This document shows positions 20,601 to 64,000 of a DNA stretch of 64,000 nt, piece after piece. The translations under genes and the position numbers were made by a program. A model generated the notes under the pieces. It was not told where the DNA came from and did no database searches. It worked only from the letters and a program-made list of their open reading frames with translations. How positions within the stretch are numbered: the first letter of the stretch is position 1; the number at the start of each line of letters is the position of its first letter. This DNA comes from Botryllus schlosseri (Eukaryota): assembly GCA_051294905.1 (NCBI GenBank), contig CM119371.1:27034001-27098000 (forward strand). The letters run 5' to 3'.

Positions 20601-23600
20601 TACATTTCAAAAACTTGATCTCGCGTGCCATAAACGCCGACGGATTGATGTCGTCATGACTCGATCCTGACACTGCTTCATACCTACCCAATGCGCATCA
20701 ATCAGAAGCGGATAAATCTCCAACAGATCCTGTGTGGACATCCCATTCAGGATGGCCTTGCGACGCGATTGAAATGTTCTTCTCATCCGATCTTTTATTG
20801 TTATATTGTCAGGTACTCTTTTGACGCATTCGGCTCTCATTGCTTTTTGGTGCACCTCAATGCTGCACTCGTCTTCTGGAGGGTATAATTTCTGAATCTG
20901 TAAGGAAAAATAGATCTTTATTAAAACATGACCGGTTATCGGTGTATCGGTACTACTTCTTGGCAATCTATCTTCTGAACCTTAAGCATGTACACTGCCA
21001 AGAAAGACTGCGTGCACAGAAAAATGTGTGGCACAGACTTGTGAAAAATTATGGGGAACCTTGCTCCTCGGTGTTGTCGGTATCGGATCAAAAACTTCAT
21101 GTCGAGGATATCTAAATGAAGGATGCAAGATACTAAATGCTCACATTGCATGTTGAGTCTCGAGAATTCTTGCACCGTTTACTGGCTTTTTCCACAACAA
21201 GGTCCTGAGATTTCCGTTTGCCGTGGCGTCCATGCTTTTGCTTTTTTAAATCTAGGATGGGATCTTCTTTTTCGAGGCGCCTTCGCCATTCCCTGTACTT
21301 GGTTTGGAGCTTGTCCTTCCATGATCCCTGCAATGTGGAATAGTTAGAGAAGGCTTCAGATTAAGTTTCGACAAACTTCTCACATATCTGTCACCACCAT
21401 CGAATAATAAACGATCTTGCAGCACCGGATACGTTGTCACCAATGCACTCAATGAGCAGTTGTATTCATGATGCGTGGGATATAACCTAGGAACATATAT
21501 ATTGAACACTAATTCAACTGCAATATTTGGTAATCTAAGAATTGCTGCGTACCCCGTGTAATTCCGTAGGTCATAAAACAGGTGATTTACGATTTCCTTC
21601 TTAATTTTGTTTGGAATTTCCAATATCTCTTTAAATTGCTGCAGCTCATGCACCAAGGCTTTTGGTAAAGAAATTTGATACCCCGTTTCTGGCCATTTCA
21701 ACGACTGGTACTTATCTCGAAATCCGCTTGAAGTAGACTCTTGGGAGCACGAGGTTGACAAGGTGCTGCTCATAACACCTTCATCTGAAGACGATACAAC
21801 AAATAAGGAAAATAATATGAATTTGATGAAGAAGTGCTTACCATCACATTCAAAATATTCAACAGGGGTGTCATGAGTGTCACTGGCATTCGTATCACTG
21901 AATGCTTCAATATTCAATGTGTCTAGGTCATTCATGCTTCCAGAAACTATGTCGGTGTCATCGGCGTCATCAGCAGAAACGTTGGCTTCGGCTATGGTTT
22001 CCTCTGCATAATTACAAGAGAGTGAAGGCGCGTATAGCATTGTCATGGAAATGTGCAGCCATAAAGGTAACCAGTGGACTCGCGGCCTATGGCGAATTCG
22101 AGCCATTGAATTCAGTCTTCGGTAAACTAGAGCCATGGTGAATTCGTAAAATAAAAATGATTATAAACGTTGGGGAATGTAATAATTATTGGAGTCTGAT
22201 CCTTGATGTTATGGCTTCATCAAAATTACACAGCTCCGTATACGGGGCATATATGCATAATATAACAGTTCATGTCTATGTGTTATTTACCATGGGCCGA
22301 GTTCACTGGTAATGGGCAAAGATATATCAGGCATCATAGGCGCCGATCCTGGGTATGCAAGGTATGCCAACCATACCTAGACATTTTCTTAGGTGTGCGG
22401 CATACCTAGAATTCGGTTTGGCATGTAGCGGCATAAACCCGGGATTGTGTGATTTAGAACAAATCACAATGTATTTCCGTTTACGATATTACCTGCTGCC
22501 GCTATGTGAGTGAGTTAACCCTTTGCACGAGGCCAATTAGCGAAAAGCGCAAATTAGCGATATTCTTCTGTGCACACTGCACAATGTAACGCGACGCGAT
22601 TTCCCGCTGAGATGATCGCGAAATTATGTCATTGATTGCCGTGCGCTAGGCAATCGTCGCATTGGACGCTTGCCTGATTTATCGAGTCTCCAACAAGCCT
22701 AGGTTCACTGGCTTGAACAATCACATTCAGCAGTAGGCCAGGTGCGCACTATACCATCGCTAGCCTGCAGTATCGCATATGCATTGGCGCGCACAATATC
22801 ATCGCTTACCTACACAATCGCATCTGCAACAGGTCTGGTACGAAAGAAAGACCTATCATTGGTGGCCATGGCCATTGGCCAACTATCGCGTCTCGAGCCT
22901 AGCATACGTTGGCTCCTATCTCTCGATGGCTTGGAGACAATAACCTTGGGTGTATGCTAATTATTAGCGATTAGCACCAAACTGAATGACATCGAATGCC
23001 CACTGACATATGCGATTGTGCGTGCGCCATGCAGGCGTAATTGAATTCCGCTAATACTTAAACATAACCATCAGAAGATGTTTGTCAAGGCGCGAGTTTA
23101 AAAATACGAGCAAGGTTTGAACATGAAATATGTGCGACTCGGACATTTTGCCTCGCGGATATCGTCGCCGAGGTTACGTAATACGTGTTGATAAGCGGCG
23201 TATTTAACTGTTCGCTAGCGATCACGCTAATTGACCGCGTTGAATAGCGTATACGCGCAAGTTCGTTAACACGAGGAGATTTGTACAATAGGGCTGTCCA
23301 AAAATAACCTTTTTTCCTTAAAGGGGCACTGCGCTCTAAAAATGATGTGGTCTCAAATTGAAGGTAAAAACGAACGAAAATTTTTGGCCGCAGCCATTTT
23401 CGTCAGAACGCCACCGTAATGGAGCTGCAATTTATTGAAATTTCTACAAGACCAGCTGCCGCGGCTGCTTAACCCGTTACATGGCACGATGTCTTCATCG
23501 TCGCACTTGCTCGACGCGATAAGGCAGTCACGCAGACAACGAATTTTAGATAGTTGTCAGCCGATGTTATGAAGGAAATGTGTCCAAGTTTCGATCTCTG

Positions 23601-24829
23601 CGTGACTGCCTTATCGCGTCGAGCAAGTGCGACGATGAAGACATCGTGCCATGTAACGGGTTAACCAGCCGCGGCAGCTGGTCTTGTAGAAATTTCAATA
23701 AATTACAGCTCCATTACGGTGGCGTTCTGAAGAAAATGGCTGCGGCCAAAAATTTTTGTTCGTTTTTACCTTCATTCTAAGACCACATCATTTTTAGAGC
23801 GCAGTGCCCCTTTAATAATGCTGGCAACGTGAATAAATCGTTATGTTGCCTTGAAAAACGACACACACCAAATTTTCTAATTCATTCCAACCAATATTCG
23901 CGGGTTTCATAGAGTTTGAAATGAATTTGCTCAAAAACGCCAAAAAAAAATTTGCTAATTTTTCTGCCAACCCCATGAAATGGTTGAGCTGTCTCCAAAA
24001 ACTATGCAAAACCAATTTGCCTCAATTCCAAGCTGTAGAAGCGGAGTTTGGTTTTATTTGTCATAACCAGCTGTAGCACTTGTCAGCTTCTGGTTTTTGC
24101 TGAAGAAACTATACAGCTCAATATTGCATTTGAAATTCGGAAAGCGAATTCTCGCAGACTACCGTACCAACTTCAAGCAGATGGATATACCGTCATATAA
24201 CGATATATATATCATATTTTAGTAGCAATATACCTTCATAGATTGTGACTGTGAATTGTTGTTACCCACATAATTCTGAATAACAGCTTTTTTCGAATAT
24301 TTCGAAAATGGCAGCCGGTGGTAAACGGTTAAGGATGCGTATTATACATGGTGGCGTACTAAACTTGGAAAATTACAGTACTATTTTTGGCAGTTCCAGC
24401 ATCGCCATGAGACATTCAATTACATGAATCAATTACTGTAACACTTTTCCCTAAAAATCTATACCGGTATCAGTTTCTATTGCAGACATCGAGCAAGATA
24501 ACACACAAGATAATTCTAGTATGGTATAATCATCATTTGAAGGCGTGATCACCGCTTTTACGGCACCAATTCTCTTTTTATGAAAATAGAATAATAAATC
24601 ACTCACTTTCTTCGTCACTCATAACAAGACGTATTTGACCCATATCTTCGATAGCTGACGGCTTATAAAGGTCGACGTACAAGTTGAATGACTTATCGTA
24701 ATATTCCATCTTGAACGTTTTTTCACCGATGGTACTACGAAATGTACTTGCGATAGCACTGTGAATCTCGGAATGGTGATTAACCGTGATCACTCTTTTG
24801 ATATCGCCATATATGATTAAAAGTTTCAT
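17515..24829 (-). CDS. Spliced EnSpm accessory (TnpA-like) gene; coding integrity uncertain
   Basis: Exon 1 MKLLIIYGDIKRV...FNLYVDL (24829 to about 24607, GTGAGT donor); exons near 22005-21113; exon IQKLYPPED...MRRTFQSRRKAI...YPLLIDAHW near 20900-20690; exon near 19707-19628; last exon 17778-17515 EPKNVYPTIEF...LAIYWVFNIKFAP...LLVD-stop. Confidence 0.65.
18690..19380. repeat. Dispersed repeat, diverged copy of about 45660-46325
   Basis: Collinear similarity by eye (e.g. TTTCGTGAA.TAACAT, CACCAAGACAT, CCATGTAACATGCGA, TTAA.TGTCCATA) in the same orientation. Confidence 0.7.
23322..23811. mobile_element. Kolobok-like palindromic MITE
   Basis: TTAA on both sides (23318-23321, 23812-23815); AGGGGCACTG...CAGTGCCCCT termini; about 220-bp near-perfect arms; inserted 33 bp inside a TAGGGCTG hAT-like end starting at 23289. 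Confidence 0.8.
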
Positions 24830-30650: not shown

Positions 30651-31256
30651 GTCGTGCAATGGTATGGACACAAGCTACTCTCACCGATCACTGCGATTGG
30701 TCTACGTCACAATTTCCATTAGGCTAAAGGCAATTTGAACGTATTTTTGACCGGCTTGCCGAGCGCTAAATTTGATAAAATTTGTTATCAATGGAAAGCT
30801 ACCGGCGTACTGATTGCGATAATATAAAAAAATCAGCTTCGAATTTTGATTGTAATTGAATTTGGCATGGTGAAGCAAGAATGCCGTCTGGAAGCAAGTG
30901 AGGAGCAGCGCAACCCGCAAGCGGTTAAGCATTCACACTCTCACTCTCACTGCACACTTGCTCCAAGCTGCGGTCGCTTATTCCAGACGGCATTGTTGCG
31001 CCACAAGACAAAATTCTGTTACAATACGAAATGCAATGCTAATTTTGAGGCATTCCAGGACTACGAGCAAAACAATATTTATATTATCGTCATCGGTACC
31101 CCGATAGCATTTGATTGATACTAATTTTATCCGATTTGTCGCTCGGCAGGCCGGTCAAAAATTACCGTAAAATTGGCTTTAGCCAAATGGGAAGTGGGAC
31201 GTACACCAACTGCAGTGAGCCGTGAGATTTGCTTGTGTCCGCACCATTGTGGGACA
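30651..31256. repeat. Diverged hairpin (foldback MITE) of about 600 bp
   Basis: Arms pair along their length, e.g. TTTTTGACCGGCTTGCCGAGCG with CGCTCGGCAGGCCGGTCAAAAA and AATGCCGTCTGGAA with TTCCAGACGGCATT. Confidence 0.75.
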
Positions 31257-49105: not shown

Positions 49106-49152
49106 ACCGGAAACGGAGGGAATTCTATACCTTCCGAAGGAAAATTGGACAT

Positions 49153-49815
49153 TAGGGCTCTTCAAAAATGACTTTTTTCTCAAATCGTACTGGTTACTTG
49201 ATAAAATTGTTAGGTTACCTAATTCAAGCCTACACACAAAATTTGGTTCAATTCCAGCCAGTAACCGCTTTGCTACAGGAGAAAAAAGTTTCTATTTATT
49301 ATTATATAAAAATAAATAATAAAAAATTACAAAATTTTCTGTTCACCCCATGAAAGTGTTAGGCTGTCTATAGAGACGATGCTGACCAAATTTGGTTCAA
49401 TTCTAACCGGTGGAAGCGGAGTTATTGCCGTCGAAAAATTTGGATTTGAATAAAATAGTATTTACGGTGACCGATTCTTTGTTTATTTATTATAGTTGTG
49501 CTCACCGTGAATACTATTTTATTTAAATCCAAATTTTTCGACGGCAATAACTCCGCTTCCACTGATTGGAATTGAACCAAATTTGGTGAGCATCGTTTCT
49601 ATAGAAAGCCCAACACTTTCATGGGGTGTACAGAAAATTTTCAAATTTTTTAATATTTATTTTTATATAATAAATATAAACTTACTTTTCCTGTGGCAAA
49701 GCGGTTACTGGCTGGAATTGAACCAAATTTTGTGTGTAGGCTTAAATTAGGTAACCAACAATTTTATCAAGTAGCCAGTACGATTTGAGAAAAAAGTCAT
49801 TTCTGAAGAGCGCTA
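49153..49815. mobile_element. Fully palindromic hAT-type MITE
   Basis: About 320-bp inverted arms TAGGGCTCTTCAAAAATGAC... / ...GTCATTTCTGAAGAGCGCTA; perfect TSD TTGGACAT (49145-49152, 49816-49823). Confidence 0.92.
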
Positions 49816-50376
49816 TTGGACATACTGGCTCTCTGAGATGCATCTGCTTCACTACGCCTCACGAATGCATGTGTCCATTGCAATTAGCAACTATTCGTCG
49901 TCTCAAGACTATGGAGACATAGATTATACAAGCGAAACATTCCACACATCCCATTGGCACATAACAAATCGTCTCAAAACGGTTGACCGTCGCGGGGCTC
50001 CTGTACGGAGACCAATCATAATAGTCGGTAATATGTGAATTAGAACTTGCGATACGGGAATACCGAGCGGATTGGCCGTAATAACTGTGCAAGTGTGAAT
50101 ATCGACAGCTCCAAGTAGTGGGAATTGCCAGCGAATATTACGACCGGCGACAAGCTCATATCAATAAGCGCGTTAACACTTACGGAGGTCGCTACGTTGC
50201 TGGAGTTGCGAGATGGGGCAGAATCGATTTTCAAACGCATAATTATAGCAATATACGAAAGGCTCTTTAATATTAAAGAGTGATTTGCCTTTACTGTTAT
50301 ACGGAATTTGTAAATGTGCTGCACAGTGTGTTTAGCAGAGTTATTTGGGTAATTGTCTGGAAAGGTTTCCTGTGCA

Positions 50377-50609
50377 ATGATTTTCTATATGTTATGTTCT
50401 CTGGTACTATCTTCCGTTCAAGCACAGAGCCGTGAAAGTACCGTTGCCGCATGTGAGATGTTACATGTCGAGACTTCGATGCTACACCATTTTGAACGCC
50501 TTCATATCATGTTTTATCATTTCAGGCAATCAAAGCGATGAACACGCGTACATGCAGAGGGAGTTAGCAGACCTTAAAATCAAGATTCACAATCTATCGT
50601 TGTTCGTCG
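50377..50609 (+). CDS. First two exons of a probable fifth lectin-family paralog, interrupted in intron 2
   Basis: MIFYMLCSLVLSSVQAQSRESTVAA (GTGAG donor) resembles exon 1 of paralog 2; exon 2 50526-50609 NQSDEHAYMQRELADLKIKIHNLSLFV with GTAAGT donor; CTLD exons are not in the window. Confidence 0.6.
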
Positions 50610-50799
50610 GTAAGTACAGACGTGTGGGATTCATCCGCGAATGCTGCAAGTAGTATAGTAGATCGGTCGCACGCGGCTATGGGGTTCTTATGGGCCCGCT
50701 CGCACGGTGCCTCGAAACTCGTGTTGGCACGGTGACCCTTTTGACCCCCCCTATCTCTCGCACGGTGCCATTGTGTCTTATGGAGCCTCTCACACGGTA

Positions 50800-50950
50800 A
50801 CCCTTTTCGGTATAGGCATCTCTCGCACATCGCATGGAAAACTCGTGGTGGCACATCGCCCTTTCGGGTATTGGCATCTCTCGCACATCGCATGGAAAAC
50901 TCGTGGTGGCACATCGCCCTTTCGGGTATTGACATCTCTCGCACATCGTA
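50800..50950. repeat. 58-bp subterminal tandem repeat (mirrored at the window end)
   Basis: CATCTCTCGCACATCGCATGGAAAACTCGTGGTGGCACATCGCCCTTTCGGGTATTG(G/A) in about 2.5 copies; GCACGGTG motifs at 50700-50800. Confidence 0.9.
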
Positions 50951-53900
50951 CTTTCGCATGTCGTGCTTTCGCGTATAGGTTGTGTTGGTGATTCGCCATG
51001 CGTTCTTATGGGTGTGGCGGTGATTCGTACTTTCGGGTATATACATCTCTCGACCGGTGTTGAATATGTATCAAGTAAATAGTCATGTGAATGAATCTTT
51101 GTTAATGTGTATATCGTGCCGCACAAACGGAAACGCGGCTTGTTGTGAGGATTAAGCAGTGCGACCTATATTTCGAATGACCTGTGTGTGGAATTGTTTC
51201 ACGGCCAGCCGCGTGCTACTATCGATTATTACACTAATCCAGTCAGCACTATTACATTCAGGAGTATTCAGTATTCAGCAGCGACACGAAAAGCGATCAA
51301 CAAATAACCGCGTTCACAAACTAACACTTCAAAAATGTGTGAAATAGTTTGCAAAACCCCGCGATCGCTGACAAGATAATGTCTCGGGCATAACCATTTT
51401 AGTGACTTGGTGTTAAAGACATACCGATCGCTCACAAGGTAATATTTCGGTAATTAGTTTGTCACAGAGCCGTCGCAAACGGTGATTCGAAAACCAACAA
51501 TTTGACACTTTCTGGTGCTTGCTATATGTTTTGACACTTCGGAACGTGGTTGACTTTAGTTGTATAATAAGAATCATGTGAATATACAAGTAATGTGTCA
51601 ATTTGTCAACTTGAAATGAAACTTACTGCACAAACCAAGTTGATTCGTATCTGAATGTGTTAATTCGGTACAATTCTAATTATTTTGAGAAATCTTTTGA
51701 TTCGACCGTAACCGAATATTACTGACGCCGACTTTCAGCCGCATCGAATTATTCGCACATTCCGCGCCGCTGTTTTCGCACTTATAGAATCAATACAATT
51801 ATAACTCTACAAGAATCAAGAATCACAAGTATGTGTATTATACAGTTATTGTCTTTATCAACACGAAATCAAACTCTTAACAAAAACACGCAACTAATCA
51901 TTTGCCAGCTCTAACATTATCAAAAAATTCCAGTATTGTTGATTGAAAATCCTCGAGTCCTTATTATCAAAAACGTTATAGTACGGTGTCGGAATCCATT
52001 CGCGGGGTGTACTAAAGCTAAATCCAGATAATCCAAAATGAAATATTTGGACTTTGACATAGTGTGAATTGAAATAGGATTGACAACATGACTACCAACT
52101 TCCCCCACAGTCCCGTTTCGATATTATACACACATTGATTTGAAACAAGTAATGAAACATCACAACTCTATTCACGGTCTGGCTTTCCGTTTGTCAAAGA
52201 GATATTTTTACATCTTACCATACTCAAAAGAATTATTCACAACATTACCAATTGTTAAAAATCTAGTTTTCAATTACTTGATTATATCACTGCAACTCAT
52301 GAATTTGAATTAATTCATCCTGGTTGTATTCGTATGCTCGGTCTTTTTTTATTCGATTGTAAAGGTTGTTACTATTCTGAAGACAAAGTATTTACTAATC
52401 GGTGCATATACGTTTTGACTTGGACATATTATATTTTGAGTATACGAGATTTGAATGTCTGAACAATAACTGAGAAATAATTTATCACAATTAAATCCGT
52501 ATATTACAGCGTAATAGATATTTGAATGTCAGCAACTCGGTAACTCGACCAACTCGTCATGAGCATTCCCGAAATCAACACAAACATGACTACTGACTTG
52601 AGTTAACCACAAAACAGCATCAAGTTTTAAATCCACTTGTAGCTTACGGATTATTTGAATGCGGGTTATGTTTTGTTGTAATTGAGTGTACGGAAATAGT
52701 ATTACGTCTTGACATCTTACCATCGTACGATATTCAAAGAGTCAACCACGAAAACATTGTCAAGTAAATCCGTTACCCGACCAACTCAAACAGTATCAGT
52801 ACGAAAAACAGCCAAACATACACGAGTCCATACAATCACTAAAACCTAAAATCCATAACAAGTTCGGTTGTATTCATATCCCTACACATCTTTTTTTTTT
52901 TTATTCAACTTGAAAAGTCGTTACTATTCTGTAAGATATAGAGGAATTACTACGCGGTATATTCTGCAAGACAAACTAATTACTACTCGGTATATTTTGT
53001 AAGACAAAAGTAATTACTACTCGGTGCGCGCAACTTGAGATTAACATATGTTTGAATATACGAGATTTGAAAGTCTGATCAACGTAGTTGCGACTTCATT
53101 TCTTACAATCGAACGCTGGTGTTATATTCAAAGTTATGATATCAGAAAATATTTTACAAATGTAATTGTTTCCAGTACCCAAGACTAAAGATGTAATAGT
53201 TCCAGTATTCATACATTGAACAACCGATGCAAAATGCTTTATTAACCCAATTCCCAACGGGATAATTGGAACGACTAAGTGTAGAGTCAGTATATCACAA
53301 TATCGTTACTATTGAATCCAGCAATTGATACGATTTATTGTCGGAATTTGTGACAGAGAATTGAAACATATGCACTTTACAGAGTGTGAAAATATCACTT
53401 TGAGTATCGAGTACCGTTCGAAGCTGGCGATCAATTCTTAATCATTTCAGTAACTCCCCATTGTGCGTGCTAAATGTGAAATATCGCGAGGTTATACACT
53501 CTAAGACTTTGATCATTACAAAAGTAAATTGTGATATGTTTGTTAGATGCATCCAATTCAACTAGAAGTGTCTAGTGCCCAACACTCGTAATATCAAAAA
53601 AGTACTTGCTACACTGTAATTCACTAAACGTGTTTTGTATTGTTGTTCATTTGTAGTATTGATTGAAATTGTTTTTGAACCCTCAAATAATAATTCCCGA
53701 CATGAAACTAAGCCACCGAAAGTCGTTACCATCACAAAGAAACAATTTGCATGATGTTTACTAAATGTGTCCTATAGTTAGGTGTGCTGGAATTATTTGT
53801 AAAACACACACACACACAGGATCAGAGAAATTGGAAATTTTTCCGTTGTTATTATCTAAAGTAAATGTCATCACAATACTCTGCCACTAAAAGACGTTAC

Positions 53901-55689
53901 TTGTATGTGATTGAATCCCTAACAATTAACCCACTATTCCAAAGAAATTTTACTCACTCGACAGATATGAAACAGCGTCACTTAATCGGTCTATCGTTTT
54001 TCTAAAGGTAAATCATATCCATCCAATAGAAAACAATTTTCACTAGCTTGGTAATGAAACCGAAGTCTCCATTCGATATTTTGTTTGTGTCAAATACTTT
54101 ACAATGAACACATTTGAGTGGTTGAGCTTTACATCATCAAGCTGTTATTTGTAAATCAAGATTTCGGTAAACTTGTAAATGTATCGTTTAACTAACCGAC
54201 ATTTAGTGATTGCTGAACATACCACTTCGAAATACTGCGTTGATCTCAATTCCCTTTATCCTGATAATCGAAGTACTTTTGTTTTGAATTCATAACAATC
54301 GGCTTTTCTATGACATGATAAATTATTGACAAGTTCTGCTTAGAAGATTGGTTGCATATCACGAAAAATAATATACCACACATATTATTACTGTTACTCC
54401 ATTCATCGGTATTTTTTCCGTTGTCGATTTTCAAACGAGTAAAATTTATTACTTGAGTTGCTCTGCTTACTATATTTAAATGTAAACTCGCCCGTCTTTC
54501 AACAACAAACAATGTTAAAAAAGTATGCAATCAAACACAACAAGTTTTACGATACTAATTATTATCCCACATAACCCATTTCTTACCGATGACATATGAA
54601 ATATATTCATGTTACACGAAAATATTCGCTCATGCTACAAACCTGTACAATGATTGGTGGTGCTTTCAAACTGTTTCGATACCTCAAGAACTTTATTGTC
54701 TGAATGGTTGTTCATGTATCGTAATAATCAAGTAGTTCAACACAGAACTAGTATTAACAGAAACACCAGAGTTGTTTACACAAAAGTTTGTATGTGTACA
54801 GTATACGAATACCATGTGTAAGTCCAGCACAATTGTGGTATCCATACGAGTTTAGTTAACACAATTTACGACACCGAGGTCGCGTCATCTTTCGTAAGAC
54901 AACAAACCAAGGCTTCAGGATATGTCCATGTCATAGCAATAAATCAGCTACTCCAACAACAGAGTGCATATGTTTTCTAGTTACGGTGCTTACATCTTAC
55001 ACACAAATCAATCTACTTTGCTAACGAAAAGTGGTGAGTCATCATATGGTTGTCCTCACAACTAAAACATACTATCATACAAAATGGTCGTTATAGTTTG
55101 CACACCAACGGTACATCGTACAAGTAACAAGTCTCGAGAATCCAGTTATTCAAAAAACGTGAAAGTATTTCTACACCAAGTCGTTATGTTGACGAAAGCG
55201 TATATTGTAATATCATGATCGATTTGCATTCGTTGGTCACAAACTGTCACTACTCTAAATAATTCTTTTTCACTCAAACACAAACGCATACTTGTCACCA
55301 TTCGTTTTCATCAAGCACGAGTTCAAGAAACTTACTTACTACGACATGAATTTTTATTTTTATGTTGTGTAAATAGGTAATAATTAATTCAAGTAACACT
55401 ATATCAACATCATCGAGTTGTGCGAATAGATTTACATATGATCTTGTGGTTTTAATCGAAGTATACAGCACGGTCTAACGTAGAGTCATCTCTGTTGTAC
55501 AGCTACTCGGTAATCGAAATGTATTAACATGTAAACAACGATCTTGTTTCGTCACACCAAAAATATGTTCACTGTCGCGATACTCCGCACAAGACGTGCA
55601 TAGCCTTTTCACACTCGTAATAGTATACCAACGTCAAGCGATAACGTTTAACAAGACCAACGACACTGAACCCACAACGTTTACCTATG

Positions 55690-56290
55690 TAAAATTACCA
55701 CTTTCACTTGCCAGTCCATCGTTTACCTGACTAAACATATTATTTTCCTTTCGAGATCTGACGTTTACCCAGAGTAAGAAACCATTTTCACTTGTAAATA
55801 TTTTTTTCCTCGGCTAACAAACCTTTTTTCACTTGGAAATATATTTTTTCTCTGGGTAACAAACCTTTTTCACTTGGAAATATATTTTTTCTCTGGTTAA
55901 CAAACCTTTTTCACTTGGAAATATATTTTTTCTCTGGTTAACAAACCTTTTTTCACTTGGAAATATCTTTTTTCTCTGGGCAACAAACCTTTTTTCACTT
56001 GGAAATATATTTTTTCCCCGGGTAACAAGCCTTTTTCCCTGAGCAACAAACCATTTTCACTTGGTGGTCCGTCGTTTTCCCGAGTAAAAATATCATTTTC
56101 CTTTGGAGATCCGGCGTTTACCCAGTGTAACAATACATTTTCACCTGGAAAAATACTTTTACCTAGAGTAACTAATCATTTTCTCCTGGGTAACAAACCC
56201 ATTTCGTCTGGAAACTATCATTTAACTGAGTACCAATACCGTTTTCACTTGGAAATACATTTTTTCCCTGGGTAACAATACCATTTTCGT
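55690..56290. repeat. Minisatellite of about 40-bp units (mirrored at about 58570-59170)
   Basis: GG(G/T)TAACAAACCTTTTTTCACTTGGAAATATATTTTTTCTCT core, homogeneous centrally and degenerate at the edges. Confidence 0.9.
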
Positions 56291-59200
56291 TTTGAAAACT
56301 GACAACCACACCGGCCAATTTGATATTTTTGTATATTGTTACAACGGACAGTGACAAAATATACACCAACAACGACTCCGATACATTTGTGTAATCGCAT
56401 ACTCACTTGCTCTGGCGCATCCCATCAAAATCGACGGTTAGCCACACACACACACAAACACAATAACAATGTGCTATTTCGATATGACTGCGATGTCCGG
56501 GTTCGTGCTTTAGATTTTCCAGAACCAATCCGTCTAAAGTTGTAATCCCCCACCTTTGTTAACTGGTTGATACACGGATAACAATCTTCGGAAAATGTAG
56601 GAACGCATACTACCCATCGTGCTAACGATTCCGGGTTACTTGCGATTGATTTCCTTGCTCACCCTATACAGATTATACGTACAGCGATATGTAGCGGTAA
56701 TCGGTTTGGTCAATACATATCACCCCATTCAGTATGGAATTACAAACCCAATACAGGTCAGTTCATAACCGGATCCGGATATTCAATGCAAAGCGATAAA
56801 GCAGAACCAATGACCAAATGTAATTAAACATGTAGATTCACAACCCTTGATTTTTTTTTCGTGAAAAATGACAATACATATCGAATATATATTTTACGAT
56901 GGTTCAATCCTACCAAGTATTCACGTAAATGTGGTTTATGACATTACATACAATGTATCAGTGTATCAATGTTGGGTGTTTATGCACACATCGGTATGAC
57001 CCATAGACAACATCATCATACCCTCCAGGACTTCGTTATTACATAGTGAGGTCAATAAAATCAATCGGAGGCATAGACGACAGAAGGCTTGGAGATCCAA
57101 TGTAAAATTCAGACAAACAAACGGATATATTTGTCCATCTTGGTTATTTACTCAACTACCATTGGTGCTCTCGATACAGCGAACGGTACAGTATGCAACG
57201 CATATCATTAGAGTGATATATCCAGAGGTAAATATGGGGCCTGGCCACAATAATTGTACGACGCCGACAAATCGATGCACGCAAGGTGTGGTTGATAATA
57301 ATTGTTTCATGTGTCAAAGAGACAGCACTCTCTCGTAAAGGTTAGCAGATCCCACAGAAACACACCTTGGATTACATTATCAAATCGATTTTAAACTTAA
57401 ACCGAATCACTGGTGTTGAGAGTAGTGATATCCGATTTTTCGAATATTCATATCGACTTAGTGAACGATCGGTAACGACACTTATCATAAACATTATGAA
57501 TATTAGTAATTCCAGTCGTATCTATCTTGTGTTGTTACAAGTTGCTAAAACCATCGAGTGAATCAGTGAACGGATAGTAATCTGGGTTAAATCTCGATAC
57601 AATTATTGTGGCCAGGCCCCATATTTACCTGTGGATATATCACTCTAATGATATGCGTTGCATACTGTACCGTTCGCTGTATCGAGAGCACCAATGGTAG
57701 TTGAGTAAATAACCAAGATGGACAAATATATCCGTTTGTTTGTCTGAATTTTACATTGGATCTCCAAGCCTTCTGTCGTCTATGCCTCCGATTGATTTTA
57801 TTGACCTCACTATGTAATAACGAAGTCCTGGAGGGTATGATGATGTTGTCTATGGGTCATACCGATGTGTGCATAAACACCCAACATTGATACACTGATA
57901 CATTGTATGTAATGTCATAAACCACATTTACGTGAATACTTGGTAGGATTGAACCATCGTAAAATATATATTCGATATGTATTGTCATTTTTCACGAAAA
58001 AAAAATCAAGGGTTGTGAATCTACATGTTTAATTACATTTGGTCATTGGTTCTGCTTTATCGCTTTGCATTGAATATCCGGATCCGGTTATGAACTGACC
58101 TGTATTGGGTTTGTAATTCCATACTGAATGGGGTGATATGTATTGACCAAACCGATTACCGCTACATATCGCTGTACGTATAATCTGTATAGGGTGAGCA
58201 AGGAAATCAATCGCAAGTAACCCGGAATCGTTAGCACGATGGGTAGTATGCGTTCCTACATTTTCCGAAGATTGTTATCCGTGTATCAACCAGTTAACAA
58301 AGGTGGGGGATTACAACTTTAGACGGATTGGTTCTGGAAAATCTAAAGCACGAACCCGGACATCGCAGTCATATCGAAATAGCACATTGTTATTGTGTTT
58401 GTGTGTGTGTGTGGCTAACCGTCGATTTTGATGGGATGCGCCAGAGCAAGTGAGTATGCGATTACACAAATGTATCGGAGTCGTTGTTGGTGTATATTTT
58501 GTCACTGTCCGTTGTAACAATATACAAAAATATCAAATTGGCCGGTGTGGTTGTCAGTTTTCAAAACGAAAATGGTATTGTTACCCAGGGAAAAAATGTA
58601 TTTCCAAGTGAAAACGGTATTGGTACTCAGTTAAATGATAGTTTCCAGACGAAATGGGTTTGTTACCCAGGAGAAAATGATTAGTTACTCTAGGTAAAAG
58701 TATTTTTCCAGGTGAAAATGTATTGTTACACTGGGTAAACGCCGGATCTCCAAAGGAAAATGATATTTTCACTCGGGAAAACGACGGACCACCAAGTGAA
58801 AATGGTTTGTTGCTCAGGGAAAAAGGCTTGTTACCCGGGGAAAAAATATATTTCCAAGTGAAAAAAGGTTTGTTGCCCAGAGAAAAAAGATATTTCCAAG
58901 TGAAAAAAGGTTTGTTAACCAGAGAAAAAATATATTTCCAAGTGAAAAAGGTTTGTTAACCAGAGAAAAAATATATTTCCAAGTGAAAAAGGTTTGTTAC
59001 CCAGAGAAAAAATATATTTCCAAGTGAAAAAAGGTTTGTTAGCCGAGGAAAAAAATATTTACAAGTGAAAATGGTTTCTTACTCTGGGTAAACGTCAGAT
59101 CTCGAAAGGAAAATAATATGTTTAGTCAGGTAAACGATGGACTGGCAAGTGAAAGTGGTAATTTTACATAGGTAAACGTTGTGGGTTCAGTGTCGTTGGT

Positions 59201-62200
59201 CTTGTTAAACGTTATCGCTTGACGTTGGTATACTATTACGAGTGTGAAAAGGCTATGCACGTCTTGTGCGGAGTATCGCGACAGTGAACATATTTTTGGT
59301 GTGACGAAACAAGATCGTTGTTTACATGTTAATACATTTCGATTACCGAGTAGCTGTACAACAGAGATGACTCTACGTTAGACCGTGCTGTATACTTCGA
59401 TTAAAACCACAAGATCATATGTAAATCTATTCGCACAACTCGATGATGTTGATATAGTGTTACTTGAATTAATTATTACCTATTTACACAACATAAAAAT
59501 AAAAATTCATGTCGTAGTAAGTAAGTTTCTTGAACTCGTGCTTGATGAAAACGAATGGTGACAAGTATGCGTTTGTGTTTGAGTGAAAAAGAATTATTTA
59601 GAGTAGTGACAGTTTGTGACCAACGAATGCAAATCGATCATGATATTACAATATACGCTTTCGTCAACATAACGACTTGGTGTAGAAATACTTTCACGTT
59701 TTTTGAATAACTGGATTCTCGAGACTTGTTACTTGTACGATGTACCGTTGGTGTGCAAACTATAACGACCATTTTGTATGATAGTATGTTTTAGTTGTGA
59801 GGACAACCATATGATGACTCACCACTTTTCGTTAGCAAAGTAGATTGATTTGTGTGTAAGATGTAAGCACCGTAACTAGAAAACATATGCACTCTGTTGT
59901 TGGAGTAGCTGATTTATTGCTATGACATGGACATATCCTGAAGCCTTGGTTTGTTGTCTTACGAAAGATGACGCGACCTCGGTGTCGTAAATTGTGTTAA
60001 CTAAACTCGTATGGATACCACAATTGTGCTGGACTTACACATGGTATTCGTATACTGTACACATACAAACTTTTGTGTAAACAACTCTGGTGTTTCTGTT
60101 AATACTAGTTCTGTGTTGAACTACTTGATTATTACGATACATGAACAACCATTCAGACAATAAAGTTCTTGAGGTATCGAAACAGTTTGAAAGCACCACC
60201 AATCATTGTACAGGTTTGTAGCATGAGCGAATATTTTCGTGTAACATGAATATATTTCATATGTCATCGGTAAGAAATGGGTTATGTGGGATAATAATTA
60301 GTATCGTAAAACTTGTTGTGTTTGATTGCATACTTTTTTAACATTGTTTGTTGTTGAAAGACGGGCGAGTTTACATTTAAATATAGTAAGCAGAGCAACT
60401 CAAGTAATAAATTTTACTCGTTTGAAAATCGACAACGGAAAAAATACCGATGAATGGAGTAACAGTAATAATATGTGTGGTATATTATTTTTCGTGATAT
60501 GCAACCAATCTTCTAAGCAGAACTTGTCAATAATTTATCATGTCATAGAAAAGCCGATTGTTATGAATTCAAAACAAAAGTACTTCGATTATCAGGATAA
60601 AGGGAATTGAGATCAACGCAGTATTTCGAAGTGGTATGTTCAGCAATCACTAAATGTCGGTTAGTTAAACGATACATTTACAAGTTTACCGAAATCTTGA
60701 TTTACAAATAACAGCTTGATGATGTAAAGCTCAACCACTCAAATGTGTTCATTGTAAAGTATTTGACACAAACAAAATATCGAATGGAGACTTCGGTTTC
60801 ATTACCAAGCTAGTGAAAATTGTTTTCTATTGGATGGATATGATTTACCTTTAGAAAAACGATAGACCGATTAAGTGACGCTGTTTCATATCTGTCGAGT
60901 GAGTAAAATTTCTTTGGAATAGTGGGTTAATTGTTAGGGATTCAATCACATACAAGTAACGTCTTTTAGTGGCAGAGTATTGTGATGACATTTACTTTAG
61001 ATAATAACAACGGAAAAATTTCCAATTTCTCTGATCCTGTGTGTGTGTGTGTTTTACAAATAATTCCAGCACACCTAACTATAGGACACATTTAGTAAAC
61101 ATCATGCAAATTGTTTCTTTGTGATGGTAACGACTTTCGGTGGCTTAGTTTCATGTCGGGAATTATTATTTGAGGGTTCAAAAACAATTTCAATCAATAC
61201 TACAAATGAACAACAATACAAAACACGTTTAGTGAATTACAGTGTAGCAAGTACTTTTTTGATATTACGAGTGTTGGGCACTAGACACTTCTAGTTGAAT
61301 TGGATGCATCTAACAAACATATCACAATTTACTTTTGTAATGATCAAAGTCTTAGAGTGTATAACCTCGCGATATTTCACATTTAGCACGCACAATGGGG
61401 AGTTACTGAAATGATTAAGAATTGATCGCCAGCTTCGAACGGTACTCGATACTCAAAGTGATATTTTCACACTCTGTAAAGTGCATATGTTTCAATTCTC
61501 TGTCACAAATTCCGACAATAAATCGTATCAATTGCTGGATTCAATAGTAACGATATTGTGATATACTGACTCTACACTTAGTCGTTCCAATTATCCCGTT
61601 GGGAATCGGGTTAATAAAGCATTTTGCATCGGTTGTTCAATGTATGAATACTGGAACTATTACATCTTTAGTCTTGGGTACTGGAAACAATTACATTTGT
61701 AAAATATTTTCTGATATCATAACTTTGAATATAACACCAGCGTTCGATTGTAAGAAATGAAGTCGCAACTACGTTGATCAGACTTTCAAATCTCGTATAT
61801 TCAAACATATGTTAATCTCAAGTTGCGCGCACCGAGTAGTAATTACTTTTGTCTTACAAAATATACCGAGTAGTAATTAGTTTGTCTTGCAGAATATACC
61901 GCGTAGTAATTCCTCTATATCTTACAGAATAGTAACGACTTTTCAAGTTGAATAAAAAAAAAAAGATGTGTAGGGATATGAATACAACCGAACTTGTTAT
62001 GGATTTTAGGTTTTAGTGATTGTATGGACTCGTGTATGTTTGGCTGTTTTTCGTACTGATACTGTTTGAGTTGGTCGGGTAACGGATTTACTTGACAATG
62101 TTTTCGTGGTTGACTCTTTGAATATCGTACGATGGTAAGATGTCAAGACGTAATACTATTTCCGTACACTCAATTACAACAAAACATAACCCGCATTCAA

Positions 62201-64000
62201 ATAATCCGTAAGCTACAAGTGGATTTAAAACTTGATGCTGTTTTGTGGTTAACTCAAGTCAGTAGTCATGTTTGTGTTGATTTCGGGAATGCTCATGACG
62301 AGTTGGTCGAGTTACCGAGTTGCTGACATTCAAATATCTATTACGCTGTAATATACGGATTTAATTGTGATAAATTATTTCTCAGTTATTGTTCAGACAT
62401 TCAAATCTCGTATACTCAAAATATAATATGTCCAAGTCAAAACGTATATGCACCGATTAGTAAATACTTTGTCTTCAGAATAGTAACAACCTTTACAATC
62501 GAATAAAAAAAGACCGAGCATACGAATACAACCAGGATGAATTAATTCAAATTCATGAGTTGCAGTGATATAATCAAGTAATTGAAAACTAGATTTTTAA
62601 CAATTGGTAATGTTGTGAATAATTCTTTTGAGTATGGTAAGATGTAAAAATATCTCTTTGACAAACGGAAAGCCAGACCGTGAATAGAGTTGTGATGTTT
62701 CATTACTTGTTTCAAATCAATGTGTGTATAATATCGAAACGGGACTGTGGGGGAAGTTGGTAGTCATGTTGTCAATCCTATTTCAATTCACACTATGTCA
62801 AAGTCCAAATATTTCATTTTGGATTATCTGGATTTAGCTTTAGTACACCCCGCGAATGGATTCCGACACCGTACTATAACGTTTTTGATAATAAGGACTC
62901 GAGGATTTTCAATCAACAATACTGGAATTTTTTGATAATGTTAGAGCTGGCAAATGATTAGTTGCGTGTTTTTGTTAAGAGTTTGATTTCGTGTTGATAA
63001 AGACAATAACTGTATAATACACATACTTGTGATTCTTGATTCTTGTAGAGTTATAATTGTATTGATTCTATAAGTGCGAAAACAGCGGCGCGGAATGTGC
63101 GAATAATTCGATGCGGCTGAAAGTCGGCGTCAGTAATATTCGGTTACGGTCGAATCAAAAGATTTCTCAAAATAATTAGAATTGTACCGAATTAACACAT
63201 TCAGATACGAATCAACTTGGTTTGTGCAGTAAGTTTCATTTCAAGTTGACAAATTGACACATTACTTGTATATTCACATGATTCTTATTATACAACTAAA
63301 GTCAACCACGTTCCGAAGTGTCAAAACATATAGCAAGCACCAGAAAGTGTCAAATTGTTGGTTTTCGAATCACCGTTTGCGACGGCTCTGTGACAAACTA
63401 ATTACCGAAATATTACCTTGTGAGCGATCGGTATGTCTTTAACACCAAGTCACTAAAATGGTTATGCCCGAGACATTATCTTGTCAGCGATCGCGGGGTT
63501 TTGCAAACTATTTCACACATTTTTGAAGTGTTAGTTTGTGAACGCGGTTATTTGTTGATCGCTTTTCGTGTCGCTGCTGAATACTGAATACTCCTGAATG
63601 TAATAGTGCTGACTGGATTAGTGTAATAATCGATAGTAGCACGCGGCTGGCCGTGAAACAATTCCACACACAGGTCATTCGAAATATAGGTCGCACTGCT
63701 TAATCCTCACAACAAGCCGCGTTTCCGTTTGTGCGGCACGATATACACATTAACAAAGATTCATTCACATGACTATTTACTTGATACATATTCAACACCG
63801 GTCGAGAGATGTATATACCCGAAAGTACGAATCACCGCCACACCCATAAGAACGCATGGCGAATCACCAACACAACCTATACGCGAAAGCACGACATGCG
63901 AAAGTACGATGTGCGAGAGATGTCAATACCCGAAAGGGCGATGTGCCACCACGAGTTTTCCATGCGATGTGCGAGAGATGCCAATACCCGAAAGGGCGAT

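Follow-up and report, generated by a model that had tools for sequence, protein, structure and literature searches.

A family of large palindromic mobile elements in the Botryllus schlosseri genome, probably dependent on Polintons with the same ends

The stretch of DNA considered here, called the window, comprises 64,000 nucleotides of the Botryllus schlosseri genome (G000:C1:27034001-27098000; 495 Mb in the whole genome), and its last part is occupied by a near-perfect palindrome with arms of more than 6 kb. The locus raises the question of what kind of element consists almost wholly of its own inverted repeat and how it could have been copied and inserted. A first-pass annotation, made from the letters alone, had proposed a non-autonomous element, nearly all inverted repeat and with Polinton-type ends, and this description was supported. 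Comparison with other loci indicated that the element belongs to a family of palindromic mobile elements of 13–15 kb, which are likely to be helper-dependent satellites of gene-bearing Polinton/Maverick elements with the same ends (here called the helper), and in most of the copies examined the loop includes a gene for a protein of 91 amino acids (aa), which the window copy lacks.

The dominant inverted repeat in the self-comparison of the window pairs 50855–57258 with 57598–64000 around a 339-bp spacer, with 99.94% identity over 6,404 columns, as confirmed by BLAST and by global alignment. The three substitutions previously found by eye (53249/61607, 56086/58770 and 57225/57631) and the single homopolymer indel at 52891 were exactly reproduced. 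It had been predicted that the mirror would extend to about 64206, finish with a matching terminus and be followed by a second copy of 50643–50648. Indeed, the right terminus lies beyond the window at C1:27098206 (window position 64206), the (AGT)2 end motif is present at both termini, and the hexanucleotide recurs exactly and directly after the right terminus (6 bp match, 7 bp do not), while outside both termini the mirroring is at chance level (3, 1, 5, 2, 2 and 6 matches per 10 bases). The complete arms are 6,610 bp (left) and 6,609 bp (right) long and differ at four sites in total, and the element measures 13,558 bp, 97% of which is palindrome. The G+C-richer cap with tandem repeats reported at the left end was found to contain a 58-bp repeat. 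No stop-to-stop open reading frame longer than 162 aa occurs in 50600–58000, and tblastn of the helper Polinton proteins against this copy disclosed no counterpart of pPolB, integrase, ATPase, protease or capsid. The earlier statement that there are no recognisable genes thus holds for the copy in the window and fails for its family, whose loops keep a selected 91-aa gene. The parts of the element are listed below, with family counts referring to the 29 paired loci described further on.

50643–50648, plus strand: 6-bp target-site duplication, left copy; its counterpart adjoins 64206.
50649–57258, plus strand: left arm, 6,610 bp, from the self-alignment.
50649–51246, plus strand: Polinton-type end with (AGT)2 motif and G+C-richer cap, matching a gene-bearing Polinton (G000:C2:20634793) in its terminal repeat at 77.7% identity.
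50801–50948: 58-bp tandem repeat inside the G+C-richer cap.
51743–51981, plus strand: old relic (68–70%) of unique helper sequence, which in the helper adjoins the inner side of the terminal repeat next to the protease gene; present in 21 of the 29 family copies.
52925–53025, plus strand: 33-bp tandem repeat, three copies; mirror at 61831–61931.
55774–56149, plus strand: 41/42-bp tandem array by the inner arm end; mirror at 58714–59082, with diverged forms in other copies.
57111–57279, minus strand: remnant of the 3' end of the 91-aa gene and its downstream sequence (73% over 111 bp; DNA profile E 1e-3), which extends into the arm here and belongs to the loop where the gene is present.
57259–57597, no strand: unique 339-bp loop of a young subfamily, from which the 91-aa gene has gone by a deletion of about 310 bp.
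57284–57414, minus strand: conserved stretch that in other copies precedes the 91-aa gene, with a 33-bp block 94% alike at 57355–57387.
57598–64000, minus strand: right arm, 6,609 bp, running past the window to 64206 (G000:C1:27098206).

The terminus was expected to be shared with gene-bearing Polintons of the same genome, and this was borne out by a match of 77.7% over 598 bp between arm positions 1–598 and the terminus of the helper. Helper elements are 15.6–16.2 kb long, with terminal repeats of 551–887 bp and a Polinton gene set that includes an integrase with rve and chromodomain (E 4e-16 and 1e-8) and a pPolB. The PF03175 domain of the latter passed the cut-off in two frames with hmmscan, so that the empty genome-wide family search for PF03175 is a false negative. 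The ATPase gave weak library matches only, and two further frames are taken by us, from the usual gene order and motifs, to encode capsid and protease. An unbroken polymerase-sized frame was present in two of the four copies translated and was split in the other two; among 114 scored integrase matches, 82 were near-full at an identity of at least 93%. The ends of the palindrome family score 42–406 against three ends of the helper family and 32–49 against a fourth, compared with 15–20 against two other Polinton families, and the terminus likeness is specific to one of the three Polinton families. Features of helper and element agree with those given for Mavericks in the available portions of PMC8097293 and PMC6431247.

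Other foldback copies were looked for from several starting points. A 16-letter terminus was counted 245/257 times in the genome (control 1/1), and a wider pattern, derived from the observed family ends, 1,107/1,103 times (control 1/4); the copy number of the family is estimated at ~1,000. When 18 loci were chosen by terminus likeness, 16 had multi-kb inverted arms and two had 714-bp repeats; of 16 loci tested by script, 14 showed an exact 6-bp duplication. A less biased count used the 16-letter termini that could be paired on C1 and C2, giving 35 pairs, of which 29 were analysed after exclusion of three already treated and three long nested ones. The 6-bp duplication was exact at 27 of these 29 loci; 20 were mirrored over at least 4 kb, three were gene-bearing Polintons with the same ends and six were shortened, old or nested elements. 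Selection by the loop gene instead (10 loci out of the 150 best matches) placed it centrally in arms of 2.8–6.8 kb in every case, with both termini and matching duplications found at six of the ten. Nested members were also encountered, namely three terminus pairs within 42 kb at G000:C1:16768420-16810257, and nested termini at C7:26020536-26048226.

Amplified or chimeric reads are known to give rise to spurious long perfect palindromes, and no single read or contig was seen to span the element. A fold-back assembly error, or a local inverted duplication, can nevertheless be set aside with near certainty, since the mirroring ceases at a definite terminus that is flanked by a 6-bp direct duplication, the same build recurs at dozens of unrelated loci with differing duplications, the 339-bp loop itself occurs at 40 loci, and the two arms of the window copy differ at four sites. 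In public contigs of three runs, half of the element is covered throughout, far deeper than the flank, and one contig extends over the left junction free of differences, though just 29 of its letters belong to the element. A 2,933-bp contig of another individual matches the left flank until 10 bases short of the element and then departs from it, as would be expected of an empty allele.

Between copies, arm identity has a median of 79% (range 66–99%; 300 pairs from 25 arms), and the nearest neighbour of a copy switches along the arm, so that the arms are patchworks. The 339-bp loop of the window copy is 98–100% alike in 40 of 40 scored loops. The family is old and mosaic, and the window copy belongs to a young subfamily within it. 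The fold point also moves, in that some sequence found in the loop of most copies is part of the arm in the window copy. In one copy, at G000:C10:12094767-12109481, the 320-bp centre is itself 92% palindromic and the small gene is duplicated in both arms, the fold point having moved.

Within a copy, the arms are mostly 99.3–100% alike. In principle this could be the work of the chromosome: a foldback-type non-autonomous transposon might use the Polinton integrase alone and have its arms equalised by gene conversion or cruciform repair, given that long inverted repeats are known to recombine, that the ends and the 6-bp duplication require just an integrase and that an extrachromosomal form was not seen. 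Older resident copies, however, have drifted to 89–98% arm identity and retain one-arm insertions uncorrected; therefore chromosomal conversion is not what keeps the arms alike. Two copies (G000:C2:16138245 and C2:34729697) carry in both arms a 211-aa gene that derives from one unique end of the helper, at 96–98% identity, its product having a weak OB-fold hint (E 0.08), and fragments of the helper protease occur in both arms of two further copies (C1:31832043 and C1:1963401). These captures from one helper end exceed 1 kb and are mirrored exactly. Because a segment from a single end cannot have been mirrored twice by chance recombination, the most economical interpretation is that a single capture preceded the copying of that arm, and it is likely that one arm is copied from the other during replication. 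The (AGT)2 motif, which the available part of PMC8097293 links to protein-primed initiation, also speaks against a role of the integrase alone, and this explanation is considered unlikely.

The resemblance to the helper does not stop at its terminal repeat. Arm positions 1095–1333 follow unique helper sequence at the protease end with 68–70% identity in 21 of the 29 copies, so that the helper-like part amounts to the outer ~1.3 kb of the 6.6-kb arm (arm 1–1333, 68–78%). This collinearity is what a plain copy-back (snap-back) defective genome of the present helper would show, and snapback genomes are known for adeno-associated virus (AAV; PMC10924063, available part). Yet the relic is just 68–70% alike, the other 5.3 kb are unmatched in 12 Polinton loci of three families, and the family has a selected gene of its own, common to a second palindrome family and absent from those Polintons. 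A copy-back origin from the present helper, which was the form proposed in the first-pass annotation, therefore appears largely refuted and is rated as very improbable; an origin from an extinct Polinton is a further alternative.

The gene in question was found as a 91–93-aa frame in loops of 0.65–1 kb, in 21 of 29 halves. Eight pairs of the 91-aa frame aligned without gaps and were stop-free in this frame alone, and the ratio of nonsynonymous to synonymous substitution rates (dN/dS) was 0.10–0.41 in seven of them. Between subfamilies the frame is the best-kept island of the loop, with 70–72% identity versus 43–52% upstream, and 148 of its 150 best-scoring genomic matches, a sample biased to the best, are free of stops. 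These comparisons show the gene to be under purifying selection. In the window copy, which lacks it, the sequences flanking it upstream and downstream are 77 bases apart versus ~390 elsewhere; this copy would rely on the helper and on sister copies for all proteins. None of the 12 Polinton loci contained the gene (best E 1.4; some loci of the third family may be incomplete).

The 91-aa protein had no sequence match in Pfam, PHROG or PDB. By sequence, only six unnamed near relatives were found, with one representative cluster only, and none among longer proteins; a 19-residue match to a viral contig was rejected. A model predicted from 20 sequences (predicted local distance difference test score, pLDDT, 84.5) has nine strands. 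Fold searches for the protein gave no E below 0.001 and Z of at most 5.2. For this model there was no clear fold match; against the alpha-crystallin domain, the small heat-shock fold, its best Z was 4.8 (root-mean-square deviation 3.7, 61 residues aligned), which is under the level that the tool deems meaningful. Three public relatives of the small protein (P0004, P0005 and P0010) lie on contigs of 0.6–4 kb. No scored copy is more than 80% like P0005, so that the family may also be present in other populations or species.

A genome search with a distant relative of the small gene gave matches that came in inverted pairs. All ten loci examined (G000:C4:14690769-14707348, C8:26394167-26410717, C5:16620383-16637934 and seven more, L155-L174) proved to be palindromes with inverted arms of 2.4–8.3 kb, unlike those of the window family. 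In this second family the small gene is in both arms (55–56% identical to that of the window family at these loci), and six of the seven arms translated also carry a Bcl-2 frame (Pfam E 4e-21). The small gene is 48–60% identical across the two families, with dN/dS of 0.14–0.43 in the 13 computable of 15 pairs. One terminus of the second family scored 37–40 against the third Polinton family (shuffle maximum 27), which tentatively ties it to that family as its helper. The boldest result is that two palindrome families, apparently tied to different helpers, share a satellite-only gene, the second helper assignment being tentative. That a selected, satellite-only gene is common to two unrelated palindrome families suggests that they are real satellites.

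In the mechanism we favour, the element would be replicated by the protein-primed polymerase of the helper and inserted by the helper integrase; movement in trans by helper enzymes is suggested by the ends, the duplication and the captured helper genes. Strand displacement would free a single strand able to form a hairpin, its 6.6-kb stem closed by a short loop on one side and offering a ready duplex origin at the open end. Copying from the hairpin, or its repair, would let one arm template the other, so that changes, recombination patches and captured helper ends would be fixed in both arms before insertion, and arm divergence would begin only afterwards. A length of 13–15 kb, just below the 15.6–16.2 kb of the helper, would suit packaging in helper capsids. 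According to the available text of PMC11886824, the standing model has the displaced strand form a panhandle, both in protein-primed replication and in the repair of ends, and by analogy with it and with the AAV snapback genomes we infer that the same may apply to the window element.

Several points weigh against this interpretation. The same part of PMC11886824 states that direct evidence for panhandles is lacking, and the contigs and RNA reads covered here disclosed no form that was replicating, folded as a hairpin or packaged. The remaining ~5.3 kb of the arm, in addition to having no match in the 12 Polinton loci, have no known role. In an arm-wide scan of the synonymous fraction, the lowest p over 299 windows was 0.006 and fell within the terminal repeats, and no gene was called; the power of this test is low, its positive control giving only p 0.011. 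Two short arm frames of 46–56 aa, at 51920–52060 and 53562–53732 on the minus strand, occur in 21 and 10 of the 29 copies, respectively, with pN/pS of 0.49, and had no support from this second, weak test. The helper frames labelled capsid and protease had zero library matches, and one of the eight pairs of the 91-aa frame had a dN/dS of 0.71. No paralogous empty site was found for the left flank, whose single genomic match is the locus itself. Last, RNA reads over the element, the 91-aa gene included, were at trace level (109–285 per 13–22 million in three 2026 runs), and expression of the gene is therefore not established. A one-strand RNA peak was seen in the inner arm (L045:7175-7384), with depths of up to 57 and 27 in two single-cell runs.

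On balance, the family is regarded as most probably a non-autonomous Polinton variant working like a helper-dependent satellite, and known systems resemble it in part. It shares with Polintons/Mavericks, as described in the available parts of PMC8097293 (Barreat and Katzourakis 2021), PMC6431247 (Arkhipova and Yushenova 2019) and PMC8502044 (Starrett et al. 2021), the (AGT)2 motif, terminal inverted repeats, a 6-bp duplication and a length of ~15 kb, to which direct DNA similarity to the ends of the resident family is added. It differs from them in the absence of polymerase, integrase, ATPase, protease and capsid genes, in inverted repeats that make up 97% of its length instead of 0.3–0.9 kb, and in having 6.6-kb arms and a 339-bp loop in place of a unique gene-bearing interior; the family also has its own small gene and an estimated copy number about ten times that of the helper. 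Non-autonomous Polintons, gene-less and moved in trans by a Polinton, were reportedly described by Kapitonov and Jurka in 2006; they are said to be internally deleted or to hold unrelated filling between ordinary terminal repeats. The window element resembles such derivatives in having ends in common with an autonomous family of the same genome (77.7% over 598 bp).

Hairpin or palindromic derivatives exist for yeast linear plasmids, adenovirus and phi29. With the snapback genomes of AAV (PMC10924063, available part) the element has in common the palindrome, a replicon origin at both ends and helper dependence; those genomes, in contrast, are short-lived deletion products collinear with their parent, whereas the family is old and mosaic, integrated in the germ line and mostly non-collinear with the helper. 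Very long inverted arms, internal tandem repeats and a variable loop recall the foldback transposons FB of Drosophila and TU of sea urchin. The latter have duplications of 7–9 bp, cut-and-paste transposases and arms of 0.3–1.5 kb, while here the duplication is 6 bp, not 7, and the ends match a Polinton. Phage satellites and virophages are helper-dependent lineages with their own genes, and several of their families are tied to different helpers. The element differs from these in lacking genes for an integrase and for replication, in its one small gene and in its residence in an animal germ line. No published account of giant palindromic Polinton dependants was found in the literature searched (subscription papers, Repbase reports and supplements lay outside its scope), and the accessible parts of PMC8502044 and bioRxiv 2024.01.15.575659 describe no such palindromic elements.

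With regard to its surroundings, the element lies in what was judged by eye to be a host intron of ~82 bp, stretched by the element to 13.6 kb; its donor is at 50610 and its acceptor at about 64255, 49 bases beyond the right terminus. No RNA reads covered the exons. Smaller self-inverted elements elsewhere in the window, at 49150–49818 (89%), 23318–23815 (91%) and 30657–31249 (68%), are probably ordinary miniature transposons.

A wider reading is put forward tentatively, as a possibility we hold open rather than favour: these families could represent an undescribed class of animal virus satellites, namely giant replicons of hairpin form whose hallmark is a small all-beta protein outside the known families. 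Several lineages of them would coexist in a single genome, each having adapted to its own Polinton by adopting the ends of the latter, gaining genes of helper or host type (OB-like, Bcl-2) in both arms and outnumbering the helpers in the germ line about tenfold. Replication of Polintons has so far been modelled and barely observed, and about 1,000 integrated hairpin dependants would constitute a fossil record of panhandle copying that is testable with population long reads alone. The family would also delimit the minimal cis signals of a Polinton and supply a clock in the divergence of its arms, and its 91-aa protein may have the helper or the host as its target. Short-read assemblies would collapse such palindromes or drop them as artefacts; in B. 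schlosseri the family may occupy ~3% of the genome, an estimate that sets ~1,000 copies at 14 kb each against 495 Mb.

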